Shown here piece by piece: positions 28,810 to 46,764 of a DNA stretch of 64,000 nt. The notes beneath the pieces are model-generated. The model worked only from the letters and a program-made list of their open reading frames with translations. It was not told where the DNA came from and searched no databases. Source of the stretch: Escherichia coli (GTDB lineage Bacteria; Pseudomonadota; Gammaproteobacteria; Enterobacterales; Enterobacteriaceae). How positions within the stretch are numbered: the stretch's first letter is position 1; each line of letters starts with the position of its first letter. Made by a program: the position numbers and the translations under genes. The stretch lies in the NCBI RefSeq assembly GCF_048403405.1, contig NZ_CP183129.1; one strand, given 5' to 3'.

Positions 28810-28833
28810 ATTATGTACACCCTTATGTACACG
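28810..28833. repeat. Left-end direct repeat (putative attL core / integrase-binding repeats)
   Basis: ATTATGTACACCCTTATGTACACG; 22/24 identical to 46741-46764; contains tandem TGTACAC motifs. Confidence 0.55.
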
Positions 28834-29216
28834 GTTTTTTCGGGTGCTTTGGTCAGAAGCCATTGTCTACATCCCTCAGGATCGAGGTGTGTAACCATGT
28901 TCAGGCTTGTTGTCCTGCGCGCGCGTATTGCTCGTGAAATTGCTGTACCCAATAGCGATGTCCGAAAAAAACCTCCGTTCTCACATGAAACAGCCATGTG
29001 CAACTGGTAACTGAACAGACTGGTAGACCGTTCGTTCAGTAAATACCTGATATTTCCGCCAACGAGAAATTGCGTTGGCTGGCAGAGTGCAAATTTGCAC
29101 GATGACCTAACCCATTGATTCTTCCACAATCCTCAATTTGAGGATTCCGGATAACACCATTTTTATAGCTCCGATCCCTTCAAAGTGAGGGGTAATTTGC
29201 CAAAACAGAGAGAGCA

Positions 29217-29504
29217 TTACTGTCTCTGGCAATCTTTATCGCGATAACGCCTGAAGTACCCTCTCGCTTCCTCATCCATACCAAGAGCCGAATGAGTCCG
29301 CTTAACTGCCTGTCTTAAATCTCCGAATCTGTCTGTAGTTGCTGGTGGGCGTGCCGCCTTACGGATACATTCAGAGCGTCTGTTTGCTGCATGTTCACGT
29401 TCTTTATCGCCATCTGCCAGCATCATGACTTCTGCCCATCGTGCGGCAGCTCTCCGGTATAGCCCTTTTGACTCCAGCTCTTCAGCTTTCCTGTCCTTTA
29501 TCAT
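29217..29504 (-). CDS. PerC/Pch-family transcriptional activator-like protein, 95 aa
   Basis: Small basic protein (MIKDRKAEELESKGLYRRAAARWAEVMMLADGDKEREHAANRRSECIRKAARPP...) resembling PerC-family proteins that I recall being carried on P4-like prophage elements; located just inside the island left end. Confidence 0.55.
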   Translation of the reverse strand: MIKDRKAEELESKGLYRRAAARWAEVMMLADGDKEREHAANRRSECIRKAARPPATTDRFGDLRQAVKRTHSALGMDEEARGYFRRYRDKDCQRQ

Positions 29505-29540
29505 TTCTGCCTCTCAGATTATATAGATAAGCAAAAAGGT

Positions 29541-29661
29541 GTTGGTTCAGTTGGTTCAGTTGGTTCAATTTGTAAAGAGCGTTGTTTTTATTGTGTTTTT
29601 TCTAAAATATTGAACCAACATCAACTCATTTTGAACCAACACAGCCCAGCTCTGAACCAAC
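29541..29661. repeat. Iteron array 1: three tandem GTTGGTTCA plus three spaced inverted copies (TGAACCAAC); crr-like
   Basis: GTTGGTTCA at 29541-29549, 29550-29558, 29559-29567; TGAACCAAC at 29611-29619, 29632-29640, 29653-29661. Confidence 0.8.
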
Positions 29662-29763
29662 AACACAGCGATAGATTTGTGATTGGTCTGTTATTTTCTG
29701 GCTGATATTTGAGCGTATAACAGTGTTATACAGTGGTATACTGTATGGATATTACTTACTGAT

Positions 29764-30219
29764 ATGGTCTTTGCAATGAGCAAATCTAATCTGATCGCGT
29801 TCCGCATCCCATCTGAATTGCAGGATGAGTTTAATCGGTCTGTTCTCGCTTCTGGAGGAGATAAAACCTCTTGGCTTGTTGATGCGATTCGCATGAAGCT
29901 GGGGCAGCCGGAAAAGTCTATTGATTCACGAATGCTTGGGCTGGTGGAGCGCATGGAAAAAGCCGCTGCGTCGCTTATTGCCGGAAAGCCGAACATCCCA
30001 CCAAAACCATATAACGAAACGGCAGTTATAAAGATCATTGCCGATACCATCCAACAGGGATTTGATAATGGGCGTGTGATAGCTGAACGGATCAATGAAG
30101 CAGGCTATCAAACAAAAGCTGGTAAAGCGTGGGATAAAGATATTTACAGCGCGTGGAAGCGTCAGGGAAGCAATGCTGAAAAGTTAAAAGCGGTGATTGA
30201 TTGTAAGGTCAGCGTATAA
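29764..30219 (+). CDS. Hypothetical protein with N-terminal ribbon-helix-helix-like DNA-binding motif, 151 aa
   Basis: N-terminus SKSNLIAFRIPSELQDEFNRSV...GGDKTSWLVDAIRMKL fits a beta-strand/helix/helix (Arc/CopG-like) pattern; first gene after iteron array 1. Start could be 29764 or 29776. Confidence 0.5.
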   Translation: MVFAMSKSNLIAFRIPSELQDEFNRSVLASGGDKTSWLVDAIRMKLGQPEKSIDSRMLGLVERMEKAAASLIAGKPNIPPKPYNETAVIKIIADTIQQGFDNGRVIAERINEAGYQTKAGKAWDKDIYSAWKRQGSNAEKLKAVIDCKVSV

Positions 30220-30298
30220 ACATGAGTGCCCATTGGAAAGCTGCTTGGGCTAATACCTTTATACACCATCAGGTGGTGACGATAGGTGAGGATCAGAC

Positions 30299-44248: not shown

Positions 44249-44311
44249 GCTTCCCGTAACCTCTTAGCGATAGTTGTTGCTTCGTTACGGGAGGAAGTAT
44301 CTGTACATATA

Positions 44312-44346
44312 TGAACAATAAAAAGGCACAGTAATGATACTGTGCC
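44312..44346 (-). terminator. Intrinsic terminator after the 321-aa cargo gene
   Basis: Perfect 8-bp stem GGCACAGT/ACTGTGCC with 6-nt loop, followed on the minus strand by TTTTTATTGTT. Confidence 0.6.
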
Positions 44347-44362
44347 TGAATAGTTAGCTACT

Positions 44363-45328
44363 CTACCCCTTACCGTTGGCGGCAGCACGTAAGTGTCTCA
44401 AAATCACATCTTCATTTGTGATTGCTAACGGTGGAATTTCGTCTTTATGAGCCACTATGCAATCCCGCCACTTCTCAGGGCTTATTTCTTTCTTTTTGCC
44501 ACGGCATTCATCAGGATACTTTGACAAAAGATATATTGCAGATTTGAAAAGTTTTTCCCTGTTTTCAGCATGTCTCTCGGCATTATGGTTGCTATTTTTT
44601 ATTTCAGGTATTAGTTCCTGTTCTACCGCCATTTCGTATCGTTTTTTGCTCTTAGCTGCGTCAAAACTTCCATTAACCTTTGCGTCATGAAGGTATTCTA
44701 AATCAGCCTTTGTTATATAAATGTTTTTATCTGACAGGCTACTCAGGTGAATTTGGGAACTTTGCATTTTGAATTTATATAGATCACAATCAAATGTTGC
44801 TTCAAGTCGCACATATGGTTCTCCACATTCTTGTGAATGATAATGTCGTGTTGTTCTACCGCGTACACGCAACAATCCACATGCAATTGATTTTCTTACA
44901 ATAAAAGAGTTTTTGCCAATTTGTTCAAAAACATTTTTATTGTCGCTGTCTTCAACTGTCAGTGGTTTATGTGCATAAAATAGCTCATAAGCACCGCTTT
45001 CAGATGCTGGGATATAAACTTCGTTGCTTGCGCTGGTAATAAGAAAAGGAAATGTAAACCTTACTTCTTCTGGGTACATAAGTAATAAATCAGTTATAAA
45101 ATTAGCATCTTTTTTGAAGTGGATGGTGGCATCAGATTCAATGAAATCAAGAAAGTCAGCATAGACATAAAAGTCTATATGTAGTCTATCTTTCCAATGC
45201 CATATATCATCAATTTCACAATTTAATAATTTTGATGCTCGCTCTATCGTGCAGTAGTCCAAAGGTGGAATACCTGATTCCTGCCATAAATTTCTATGCA
45301 CCACTGTTGTTTCATGAGAGTCGTTCAT
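44363..45328 (-). CDS. Hypothetical AT-rich cargo protein, 321 aa, between integrase and alpA
   Basis: Markedly AT-rich codon usage compared with flanking int and alpA; own terminator; no motif recognised. Confidence 0.6.
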   Translation of the reverse strand: MNDSHETTVVHRNLWQESGIPPLDYCTIERASKLLNCEIDDIWHWKDRLHIDFYVYADFLDFIESDATIHFKKDANFITDLLLMYPEEVRFTFPFLITSASNEVYIPASESGAYELFYAHKPLTVEDSDNKNVFEQIGKNSFIVRKSIACGLLRVRGRTTRHYHSQECGEPYVRLEATFDCDLYKFKMQSSQIHLSSLSDKNIYITKADLEYLHDAKVNGSFDAAKSKKRYEMAVEQELIPEIKNSNHNAERHAENREKLFKSAIYLLSKYPDECRGKKKEISPEKWRDCIVAHKDEIPPLAITNEDVILRHLRAAANGKG

Positions 45329-45423
45329 TGCGTCACCTTTTACGCTGCGCCTTATTTTGTGATTGAGCCAGGCGGTAAGGCTTCCCGCTTTTCGCCCCGT
45401 CGAGCTAGGCTCAATCTATTCAG

Positions 45424-46683
45424 TTAGTTCGCCCTTCTGAGAGGCGTTACGTTGTAGTCTTTTCCGCTTTCCAGTGCCACCAGCAGATCAGCCCACTGTG
45501 CCAGTGCTGCTTTACGCTCATCAAAATACTGATGGCGGTTATAAATCCCCTCTACGCCCTTAATGCGATGATTGAGGCATCGTTCCGCCACGACAGGATC
45601 AACACCCAACGCTGCTAAATGAGTACGTGCGGTGCGTCGGAAGTCGTGAATCGTGAAATTAGGCACATCCGGCATTTCGGCGCGAACCTTAGCCAGTGCT
45701 ACGGGCAAAGTGCTTTCCTGAATATGTGGGATCATTCTGTTTTGCATCTTCCTGGCTGGAAGCACCCATGCGCTATTACATGAAAAGGTGTGTAGCTCTC
45801 TCAACCATTCAACGGCTGGGGAAGGTAGAGGTATATCAATAGGGTCTCCGTTTTTGCTGCGTTCTTCCGGCAAATGCCATACCGCACCATCTAAATCAAA
45901 CTCTTCCCATCGTGCGGCGCATAACTCCATCTTACGAACGCATAGTGCCAGCAATAGCTTAAATGTCAGTTCGTTCTGGCGGCTGAATCCTTTTGCGGTG
46001 CGCATAGCCTCGAATAGCCTGATAAGCTCATCGCGAGTTAGCCAACGGTCGCGGGAAACCTCTTTACCACCAGCATCAGATACTTCAAACGCTGAACAAG
46101 GGTTTATCTCCAGAGCGTGGCGTTTTATCCCGTAGTCAAAGATACGGCGTGTCCAGCGTAATACATCTGTTGCTATCGTTGGTGCTCCTCGGTCAACGAT
46201 ACCTTTCAACATGTCGTCAATGTGGCGTGGCTTAACGTCCTCTACCTTCATATGCCCAATGCAGGGGTTAATATCCTTATCAATTCTCCGGCGAAGGATA
46301 TCGGGATGTTTCCATCTCGGAAGTATCTGGCGCTCGAAGTATTCGGAGGCCAGATCTGAAACACGCATGGCGTTTTTCTCAGCCTCCATTTTTGCCAGTG
46401 CTTCAGCTTTTCGTTCCTGTTTCTCTGCTGCTACGTCATAGCCAAGAGCAACTCTGGCTGACAGCTCTTTTGCTGTTTCTCTGGCTTTTGATAGTGACAG
46501 TTCGGAGTAAGAGCCTATAACCATAGCCCGCTGCTTTCCTGCGAGCTTATAGCGGAATCGCCAGAACGGGGCTGTGTAGTTTTTGGGGTAGCAAATATAA
46601 AGGCCGTTGCCGTCTGCCTTGCCATCAAATCTGTCTCCCGCCTTTATCCATGCGCGGATCTGCATATCTGTGAGTTTTGGCAT
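45424..46683 (-). CDS. Tyrosine recombinase, P4-type integrase, 419 aa
   Basis: From MPKLTDMQIRAWIKAG...GNGLYI (P4-integrase N-terminal arm-binding pattern) to C-terminal catalytic region with ...HDFRRT...LNH..., ending ...GIYNRHQY (tyrosine nucleophile context); adjacent to right-end repeat. Confidence 0.9.
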   Translation of the reverse strand: MPKLTDMQIRAWIKAGDRFDGKADGNGLYICYPKNYTAPFWRFRYKLAGKQRAMVIGSYSELSLSKARETAKELSARVALGYDVAAEKQERKAEALAKMEAEKNAMRVSDLASEYFERQILPRWKHPDILRRRIDKDINPCIGHMKVEDVKPRHIDDMLKGIVDRGAPTIATDVLRWTRRIFDYGIKRHALEINPCSAFEVSDAGGKEVSRDRWLTRDELIRLFEAMRTAKGFSRQNELTFKLLLALCVRKMELCAARWEEFDLDGAVWHLPEERSKNGDPIDIPLPSPAVEWLRELHTFSCNSAWVLPARKMQNRMIPHIQESTLPVALAKVRAEMPDVPNFTIHDFRRTARTHLAALGVDPVVAERCLNHRIKGVEGIYNRHQYFDERKAALAQWADLLVALESGKDYNVTPLRRAN

Positions 46684-46740
46684 TGCGAATACCTGAATAT
46701 CGAATATGGGTGTGTACATAAAGCAATGTACATGAAAGTC

Positions 46741-46764
46741 ATTATGTACACCTCTATGTACACG
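46741..46764. repeat. Right-end direct repeat (putative attR core / integrase-binding repeats)
   Basis: ATTATGTACACCTCTATGTACACG; 22/24 identical to 28810-28833; additional TGTACA motifs at 46711-46740. Confidence 0.55.

Follow-up and report, generated by a model that had tools for sequence, protein, structure and literature searches.

The stretch of Escherichia coli DNA described here (64 kb of contig NZ_CP183129.1, as a whole called the window) carries an insert of 18,129 bp between dinD and yicC, which was located at positions 28743-46871 by alignment with two genomes in which the same site is empty. The insert lies directly next to the stop codon of yicC, a minus-strand gene at 46872-47735. 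Read from that end, it contains the gene of a tyrosine integrase (int), an int-alpA RNA motif, a cargo gene for a protein of 321 amino acids (aa), alpA, the genes of a 143-aa protein, an AntA/AntB antirepressor and a DUF4222 protein, and a region annotated as 'ash'. This is followed by six small open reading frames (ORFs), the gene of a primase-helicase, an ORF of 53 aa and a block of four homologues of the ejection-protein genes of phage P22 (DUF2824, which is of the gp14 type, and gp7-, gp20- and gp16-like genes), and finally by variable cargo and a PerC-like gene. The order was taken from the RefSeq annotation of near-identical copies together with PHROG scans. All genes of the island are on the minus strand, with the exception of the cargo between gp16 and PerC (Table 1). 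The island is read as a phage-inducible chromosomal island (PICI) of the EcCIMP1 family, a satellite of P22-like temperate podoviruses, of which the integration module would have been exchanged for one directed to the 3' end of yicC. A probability of about 0.85 is assigned to this reading.

Table 1. Features of the island and its attachment sites, in window coordinates; percentages are sequence identities.
Feature	Position	Strand	Assignment or remark
attL core remnant TGGATCTG	28742-28749		12 bp to its left deleted relative to the full-length attL of other strains
P' arm, tandem TATGTACAC pair	28810-28833	+	Arranged like the annotated arm repeats of P4 attP, at the same distance from the core
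PerC-family/ANR-like small regulator, 95 aa	29217-29504	-	RefSeq annotation of near-identical copies; PHROG transcriptional activator families
Iteron cluster A, six TTGAACCAAC-type repeats	29541-29661		Three repeats per orientation
Variable cargo, 151 aa	29764-30219	+	
Variable cargo, 66 aa	30299-30499	+	Hydrophobic tail
Variable cargo, 129 aa	30984-31373	+	Membrane protein
P22 gp16-type ejection (injection) protein, 701 aa	31392-33497	-	PHROG 770 / 29117; homologues PF26808 (Phage_P22_gp16)
P22 gp20-type ejection protein, 473 aa	33497-34918	-	PHROG 917; best phage match APSE P33, 52%
P22 gp7-type ejection protein, 225 aa	34918-35595	-	PHROG 598 'DNA ejection'; 100% to EcCIMP1, 57% to Kapi1
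P22 gp14-type protein (DUF2824), 153 aa	35589-36050	-	PHROG 651; 97% to EcCIMP1, 83% to Kapi1
Iteron cluster B, six TTGAACCAAC-type repeats	36677-36787		Directly after the primase stop codon
Primase-helicase, 918 aa	36813-39569	-	Zn-ribbon, Toprim_3, DUF927 (Pfam); PHROG 1139
Six small conserved ORFs (123, 113, 200, 73, 87, 64 aa)	39556-41539	-	96-100% to EcCIMP1
Icd-like cell-division-inhibitor ORF	41743-41961	-	NCBIfam phage_ICD_like, 71 bits (cut-off 25)
C4/CI-type antisense immunity RNA	41991-42078	-	Rfam RF01695, 79.5 bits (gathering score 45)
isrK-like RNA with intrinsic terminator	42141-42218	-	Rfam RF01394, 67.1 bits (gathering score 50)
DUF4222 protein	42596-42775	-	96-97% to EcCIMP1
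AntA/AntB-type antirepressor	42768-43601	-	96-97% to EcCIMP1
143-aa protein	43614-44045	-	96-97% to EcCIMP1
AlpA-family regulator, 67 aa	44045-44248	-	PF05930, PHROG 66
Low-GC cargo gene, 321 aa	44363-45328	-	GC 0.385-0.41; between the int-alpA RNA and alpA
int-alpA RNA motif	45349-45415	-	Rfam RF02996, 60.6 bits (gathering score 35.8)
Tyrosine integrase, P4-type architecture, 419 aa	45424-46683	-	Arm-DNA-bind_3, Phage_int_M, Phage_integrase (Pfam)
P arm, one inverted and two tandem TATGTACAC sites	46712-46764		Just upstream of int
Bidirectional terminator hairpin	46812-46835		Island-borne; now ends yicC transcription
attR core TTATTCGATATTCTGGATCTG	46872-46892		Covers the last six codons of yicC and its stop codon

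The limits of the insert were given by genome L002, which aligns with window positions 26000-28742 and 46872-50000, and by the near-isogenic strain MS 69-1. In the latter the left flank (27500-28742) is identical over 1243 of 1243 bp, and the right flank (46872-64000) shows two substitutions and one gap over 17,142 bp. An earlier note on this DNA had proposed an integrative satellite element, about 18 kb in size, inserted between dinD and yicC, and had left the exact junctions and the empty site to comparison with genomes lacking the insert. Both were defined by these alignments, which bear the proposal out. The limits proposed at that time, 28810-46764, are correct as the outer ends of a pair of repeats, but the true junctions lie 67 bp and 107 bp further out. 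The integrase, AlpA, the antirepressor and the zinc-finger/TOPRIM primase-helicase that had been named were all confirmed by Pfam or PHROG domains, whereas the ejection-protein module, the C4, isrK-like and int-alpA RNAs, the iterons, the PerC-like gene and the short attL were absent from that description.

The distribution of the island was surveyed by a megablast search with window 26500-49500 as the query in 5426 complete E. coli genomes. At least 80% of this segment was held by 98 genomes, and nearly all others matched the flanks alone (ligB-yicG-dinD and yicC-rph-pyrE). The left yicC junction was found in 232 genomes (about 4%) and an uninterrupted dinD-yicC site in about 4144, while the segment comprising the primase and the ejection-protein genes was present at a coverage of at least 80% in 243. 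The island is not part of the E. coli core genome; the same dinD-yicC content in most E. coli, which had been named as an argument against insertion, was not encountered. As had been noted before, no tRNA gene is present at either junction: the sole tRNA gene given by ARAGORN in the window is that of tRNA-Sec (10098-10192). The absence of a tRNA gene had been called unusual, but is unsurprising because the 3' end of yicC is a documented attB. It is used by mobilisable genomic islands (MGIs) and by integrative elements (IEs) resembling Salmonella genomic island 1 (SGI1) (PMC8409611), and reference PICIs at yicC are mentioned in a preprint (bioRxiv 10.1101/2022.07.18.500453).

EcCIMP1 is the PICI of E. 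coli MP1 and resides at the tRNA-Thr gene next to proA (Pick, Stadel & Raivio, ISME J 2025; PMC11773190). It excises and circularises only on induction of the P22-like phage Kapi1, requires int and alpA, and is transduced by Kapi1 (PMC11773190). Pick et al. assign it to the class PICI Type C #var01. The MP1 locus was used as the EcCIMP1 sequence for a direct comparison. Over 9.3 kb (34758-44055) the window was 97.4% identical to EcCIMP1 at the nucleotide level, and 13 proteins, from the 143-aa protein through gp7, were 96-100% identical and encoded in the same order. The likeness in gene order extends from int to the PerC-like gene, including the 53-aa ORF and DUF2824, and both iteron clusters are shared. 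The differences are found at the ends. EcCIMP1 is inserted at tRNA-Thr (thrW) with the core TCCTATTATC, whereas the window island is inserted at yicC and has a different Int and AlpA. It also has the 321-aa cargo between int and alpA, has no second alpA gene (alpA_1), and its attL is short. Its gp20 is 48% identical to that of EcCIMP1 over 39% of the length, and its gp16 has no detectable similarity to the EcCIMP1 gp16, a protein with a lytic transglycosylase domain. Between the PerC-like proteins the identity is 52%, and the cargo is different. Because the integrase and AlpA had already been reported as variable among EcCIMP1-like elements (PMC11773190), the yicC site marks a variant and does not exclude the island from the family. 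Judged from these comparisons the island belongs to a family that is known already, and it differs in its swapped yicC integration module and in its gp20, gp16 and PerC alleles.

The general layout of PICIs, with int at one end, AlpA and then a primase with iterons, was also found. PHROG scans of all island ORFs revealed no capsid, tail, terminase or lysis genes, and the four ejection-protein homologues were the only virion-related genes. The island resembles the classical Gram-negative PICIs EcCICFT073 and EcCIEDL933 in its int-alpA-primase order, its PerC-like cargo, a size within 10-20 kb and the absence of capsid, tail and lysis genes. The EcCIMP1 group is phylogenetically distant from these two and is without their packaging modules (PMC11773190); they were compared by description only. 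In the window island the ejection-protein genes occupy the position of the packaging module.

Int, which is specific for the 3' end of yicC, shared 99% identity with the integrases of other yicC-site copies, 28% with that of EcCIMP1 and 25% with that of P4. AlpA is the probable excision factor. It was 98-100% identical to that of other yicC-site copies, and similarity to the EcCIMP1 alpA was undetectable (E<1e-5). A backbone of the EcCIMP1 type was found at thrW in three of the genomes compared, one of which is MP1. In another, strain 05_3471, the backbone at thrW is combined with gp20 and gp16 alleles that are 98-99% identical to those of the window. As a near-identical backbone occurs at thrW and at yicC with different Int/AlpA pairs, the sequences indicate that these islands are one family, in which the int/alpA cassette has been exchanged between thrW-specific and yicC-specific versions. 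The breakpoint of the exchange lies within the 3' end of alpA, near 44055. Outside this family, an Int 86-90% identical to the yicC type was observed on seven satellite-like IMG/VR contigs, the primases of which are 60-68% identical to that of the window and which are without the ejection-protein module. The yicC integration cassette is therefore common to different satellite backbones.

The att core was derived from the junction sequences and from an alignment of eight attL copies, one attB and attR. It is a block of about 21 bp, TTAYTCGATATTCTGGATCTG, that covers the stop codon and the last six codons of yicC. The empty site reads ...GGCGTTACGAGTTACTCGATATTCTGGATCTGCTCGCG..., attR of the window reads ...CTGATAGCTTATTCGATATTCTGGATCTGCTCGCG... 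and attL of the window reads ...GGCGTTACGAGTTGGATCTGTTTGTAGAG.... The end of yicC that is supplied by the island is synonymous (GAA TAA versus GAG TAA). A full second copy of the core is present at attL in strains I2 (GAGTTACTCAATATTCTGGATCTG followed by TTTG) and TO6 (GAGTTATTCGATGTTCTGAATCTG followed by TTTG), where the direct repeat of the core measures 19-21 bp, whereas the window keeps 8 bp of it at attL (TGGATCTG). Both right-flank substitutions relative to MS 69-1 are situated inside the core (46878 and 46881), which reads TTATTCAATGTTCTGG in MS 69-1 and TTATTCGATATTCTGG in the window. They are best read as attP-derived bases, which would place the crossover to their right, inside TTCTGGATCTG. 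The possibility that the MS 69-1 attB allele, TTATTCAATGTTCTGGATCTG, is an excision scar was rejected, since it is a common allele that is found exactly in about 617 complete genomes.

The imperfect 24-bp direct repeats reported earlier near both ends are present (28810-28833 and 46741-46764, 22 of 24 positions matching) and consist of tandem pairs of TATGTACAC. A fifth copy lies inverted at 46712-46720, and all five exact copies of this motif in the window are within about 160 bp of the island ends. In the annotated attP of P4, the core is flanked on either side by tandem arm repeats of 12 bp, and an inverted copy lies near int, at similar distances. Because the repeats of the island are inside the element and have the position and tandem layout of the P4 attP arms, arm-type integrase sites are the better reading. 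The earlier note had allowed for either att cores or arm sites. The former does not apply, as the core is TTAYTCGATATTCTGGATCTG at the end of yicC, and the latter is consistent with the P4-like layout. The int-side arm sites, 30-80 bp upstream of the start of int, could autoregulate int.

When the window was compared with seven other attL copies, deletions of the attL core were seen, of 12 bp in the window and of 2, 8 or 11 bp in other lineages. These nested deletions share one endpoint, directly 5' of TG(G/A)ATCTG. The left core-type half-site of the integrase appears to be lost in the window copy. As the 12 bp missing from attL include this presumed core-binding half-site, excision of the window copy is probably impaired, and grounded copies of this kind would be expected to accumulate because they are unable to leave. 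More speculatively, the shared endpoint may mark the position of integrase cleavage, and the nested deletions may be footprints of cleavage followed by resection, by which satellites would be grounded progressively.

The four genes of the ejection-protein module have the same order as the E-protein modules of P22-like phages (genes 14, 7, 20 and 16 of P22; Sf6, Kapi1, N7), and the families DUF2824, P22_gp7, Inj_translocase and Phage_P22_gp16 are shared. In complete P22-like prophages the same four-gene order is found between the tail-needle gene and the immI region. The block of the island differs in being without other virion genes, and its gp16 and gp20 are at most 67% and 52% identical, respectively, to those in the phage collection, in which N7 and HZ41 gave the best gp16 matches (67%). 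Compared with complete P22-like prophages of Salmonella and Citrobacter, gp16 was 71-76% identical. Among satellite copies, the ratio of non-synonymous to synonymous substitution rates (dN/dS) was 0.06-0.30 for the ejection genes and 0.17 for the primase. Thus, the ejection genes are under purifying selection between satellite copies. The module recurs in two IMG/VR relatives (L045 and L047), of which the primase is 75% identical, and most of the remaining IMG/VR loci with a related primase are without it. In other loci of this kind the 'gp16' matches were weak and confined to the lytic transglycosylase domain at the N-terminus of the EcCIMP1 gp16, and they were discarded.

A literature search yielded no paper describing ejection proteins in satellites, and to our knowledge no phage satellite has been reported to supply them. 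The most likely role of the ejection proteins is either to be loaded into particles built by the helper or to interfere with its ejection proteins; this is put forward as a proposal. In EcCIMP1 the genes were drawn as 'DNA transfer' and a packaging role was suggested by Pick et al. (PMC11773190). A more far-reaching idea, to be taken as tentative, is that the satellites encode their own DNA-delivery apparatus, by which they may either form an ejectosome unlike that of the helper or disable helper progeny or superinfecting phages. EcCIMP1 contributes to superinfection immunity, which is unexplained, and no known defence system was found there (PMC11773190). If true, a role of the ejection proteins of this kind could explain that immunity.

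Several observations weigh against assigning the island to active EcCIMP1-type satellites of P22-like phages. The window contains no helper phage, and neither a pac-site mimic nor a small terminase was found in the island. Transduction of EcCIMP1 itself by Kapi1 is very inefficient (PMC11773190). In some copies gp14 and gp7 have been lost and in others gp20 or gp16 is frameshifted or truncated, which implies that the module is not indispensable. Between EcCIMP1 and its proven helper Kapi1 the identity is 26% for gp20 and 24% for gp16. Hence the set of the satellite is no copy of that of the helper, and a matching of ejection alleles to the helper was rejected for this pair. Finally, an attL short by 11-12 bp occurs in at least 60 complete genomes, the 60 best junction matches all had an attL of the same length as the window or 1-4 bp longer (most 0-1 bp), and many yicC-site copies may be immobile through their short attL.

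The latter observation, together with the 12 bp missing from attL in the window and the nested deletions in other lineages, would also fit a grounded and domesticated satellite, i.e. a former PICI that has become fixed in the chromosome and is kept for a benefit to the host, such as superinfection immunity towards P22-like phages, PerC/ANR-type regulation or other cargo. The contribution of EcCIMP1 to superinfection immunity and the finding that its PerC-like protein silences the locus of enterocyte effacement (PMC11773190) are in line with such a benefit. This explanation is possible but held to be less probable than its opposite. Int, alpA and the remaining backbone genes are all intact, with 96-100% identity either to the functional EcCIMP1 or to other copies. 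The empty-site relative has identical flanks, which points to a recent gain or loss and not to long residence. Moreover, the identity of attL and attR over 8 bp (TGGATCTG) has been retained.

It was also considered whether the island is a composite relic, in which an integrase/primase island is joined to a fragment of a decaying P22-like prophage and the ejection genes are junk. The order of the block, which is that of P22-like prophages, the pseudogenised gp16 or gp20 in some copies and the two inverted iteron clusters that bracket the block could be taken in this way. Such an origin is unlikely, as no portal, coat, tail, terminase or lysis gene was detected in the PHROG scans and the linkage of the module with the primase is seen in 243 genomes and at two integration sites. 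It also recurs in the two IMG/VR relatives with the more distant primase, and the low dN/dS values and the four intact ORFs of the window do not resemble decay. A defective P22-like prophage was rejected: no other P22 modules (portal, coat, tail needle, tailspike, immC, immI) are present, and for this reason the island is not regarded as a prophage remnant. Outside the gp14-gp16 block, Kapi1 and the island had in common only an integrase match of 25% identity and a single nucleotide match of 60 bp. At the nucleotide level Kapi1 matched only the gp14 gene and these 60 bp (window 29106-29165), the counterpart of which lies inside a Kapi1 antirepressor gene.

The primase was 99% identical to that of EcCIMP1, and its N-terminal 360 aa were 33% identical to the alpha protein of P4. 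The two iteron clusters, which are both present in EcCIMP1 as well, are inverted copies of each other with a 55-nucleotide arm that is 96% complementary. In the window 16 matches of the TTGAACCAAC type were counted versus 4.9 expected, and 12 of the 16 are within the two clusters. The position of cluster B corresponds to that of crr after alpha in P4, where the repeats of crr recur at a distance as a second set, ori. At the position of cluster B, the IMG/VR relatives L045 and L047 have nine copies of another iteron, ACGGGTTA. An origin that is bound by the primase is expected to co-vary with it, as is seen in these two relatives, and this supports a function as origin. Cluster B is probably a replication origin or a crr-like site. 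In another member at the yicC site, NZ_CP196316 (L004), the TOPRIM/DUF927 primase is replaced by a replication protein of the DUF5906 type (17487-19838); gp20 and gp16 are kept, and gp14 and gp7 are absent. This replication protein suggests that replication modules are exchanged within the family.

Upstream of the primase operon, the C4 region was 71% identical to the P4 cI region at the nucleotide level. The loop of the C4 RNA contains CCAUUCGA. Sites of the TCGAATGG/CCATTCGA type occur three times in the window, in the C4 loop, in the isrK-like leader (42170-42177) and in the Shine-Dalgarno sequence of the Icd-like ORF (41948-41955). The TCGAATGG copies have the orientation that is expected for pairing between loop and target, and the ribosome-binding site of the Icd-like ORF is complementary to the C4 RNA loop. 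The immI region of P1 and P7 and the immunity region of P4 have the same arrangement. The C4 region likely keeps the operon from the Icd-like gene to the primase off at rest. The 355-aa 'ash family protein' ORF annotated by PGAP (41532-42599, minus strand) extends over both RNAs and shares sequence with the Icd-like ORF, which is in a different frame, and may therefore be at least partly an annotation artefact. The counterpart region of EcCIMP1 is annotated as an ash pseudogene and an Icd-like protein.

These similarities bring up the question whether the island is a P4-like satellite that exploits helpers of the P2 type. The architecture of the integrase and the geometry of the attP arms, with tandem repeats on both sides and an inverted one near int, match P4. 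AlpA is 35% identical to P4 ORF88, and the CI/C4 RNA, the Zn-ribbon/Toprim N-terminus of the primase and the ori/crr-like layout of the iterons are shared. The P4 hallmarks (alpha-type primase, CI RNA and P4-type integrase) are thus all present, but as distant homologues (25-40% aa identity). In tblastn searches with the proteins of the island as queries against the P4 genome, the int, ORF88, cI-region and alpha genes were the only matches, and Sid, Delta, Psu, Epsilon, Gop, Beta and cII gave none. Membership of the P4 group was rejected, as no sid, delta, psu or epsilon match was found. The island is also without cos-related genes, and it has a DUF927-type helicase part and P22-type ejection proteins, unlike P4. 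The helper of P4 is a P2-like myovirus, whereas the virion-related genes of the island are of the P22 type and the proven helper of its near-identical backbone is the P22-like Kapi1; its helper type would be a P22-like podovirus. Dependence on P2-type helpers is considered very improbable. The earlier suggestion of a P4-like element or a Gram-negative PICI can accordingly be narrowed to its second part, a PICI of the EcCIMP1 family. Least probable of all is an integrative element mobilised by conjugation, for although MGIVflInd1 and IEEcoMOD1 have a tyrosine integrase and share the yicC 3' end as attachment gene (PMC8409611), their conjugative-mobilisation cargo is unrelated to that of a phage satellite, the backbone of the island is that of a phage-mobilised PICI, and the annotations of the ORFs by PHROG, NCBIfam and PGAP include no relaxase, MobI, TraG/TraN or AcaCD-related gene, although a cryptic oriT may be present.

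With respect to the accessory genes, the PerC-like protein scored 26 bits with NCBIfam ANR_neg_reg, below the cut-off of 32 bits. The variable cargo ORFs between 29764 and 31373 belong to no PADLOC or NCBIfam family. At the same spot between gp16 and PerC, Abi-family or ImmA/IrrE genes are found in other family members, for which reason the two variable spots look like defence or accessory hotspots. The 321-aa cargo protein had no sequence match in Pfam, PHROG, NCBIfam or PDB and gave one weak PADLOC match (PDC-S31, E=0.002). It has 48 homologues in Enterobacterales, none of which is named, and a conserved C-terminal segment of about 70 aa. Its AlphaFold model (alignment of 37 sequences; confidence score pLDDT 65) gave nothing below E=0.26 in a Foldseek search against PDB. 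No defence systems were found by PADLOC in the other cargo ORFs.

Some observations were made on the surroundings of the island. In NZ_OZ040716, of which the island copy is 100% identical over the compared segment (ejection-protein genes and primase), dinD is replaced by an IS66-family insertion (ISEc23) adjoining attL (14786-17202), and the selC side differs. In NZ_CP196316 dinD is missing too. Strains with the island therefore show instability on the dinD side of the junction. Positions 1-12000 of the window belong to a separate, selC-linked accessory island that adjoins the tRNA-Sec gene. In identical genomes this island is annotated with a YopB/SseC-family type III translocon subunit, an IpaD/SipD-family needle-tip protein, setC and yicJ.

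Taken as a satellite of the EcCIMP1 family, the island would have the following life cycle. At rest, the C4/CI RNA would pair with its two TCGAATGG targets, in the isrK-like leader and at the ribosome-binding site of the Icd-like gene, and this pairing would silence the downstream operon, which extends into the primase gene. The onset of lytic growth of a P22-like helper would induce alpA, and Int, probably with AlpA, would excise the island. The primase-helicase would then replicate it from the iteron clusters, i.e. cluster B after the primase and the inverted copy 7 kb away, after which the DNA would be packaged into helper capsids. The gp14-gp7-gp20-gp16 block lies at the position where other PICIs hold a packaging or interference module, and the PerC/ANR-like gene and the two variable regions would be cargo.

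The analysis places a common E. coli island, present at yicC in about 4% of the complete genomes and at thrW in more, in a family of satellites that has been known only since 2025 and has been little studied. The backbone of this family moves between attachment sites through a swap of the int/alpA cassette. The anatomy of the family is sharpened in three respects: an antisense-RNA switch of the P4/P1 type precedes the replication genes, there are ori/crr-like iteron clusters, and a full P22-type ejection set is present that is under purifying selection and is not matched to the known helper. For annotation this means that a reading of the element as a defective prophage is to be avoided, and that the 355-aa 'ash family' ORF probably conceals two RNA genes and an Icd-like gene. 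If the ejection proteins are used, they would represent a new way for a satellite to exploit or to sabotage its helper.

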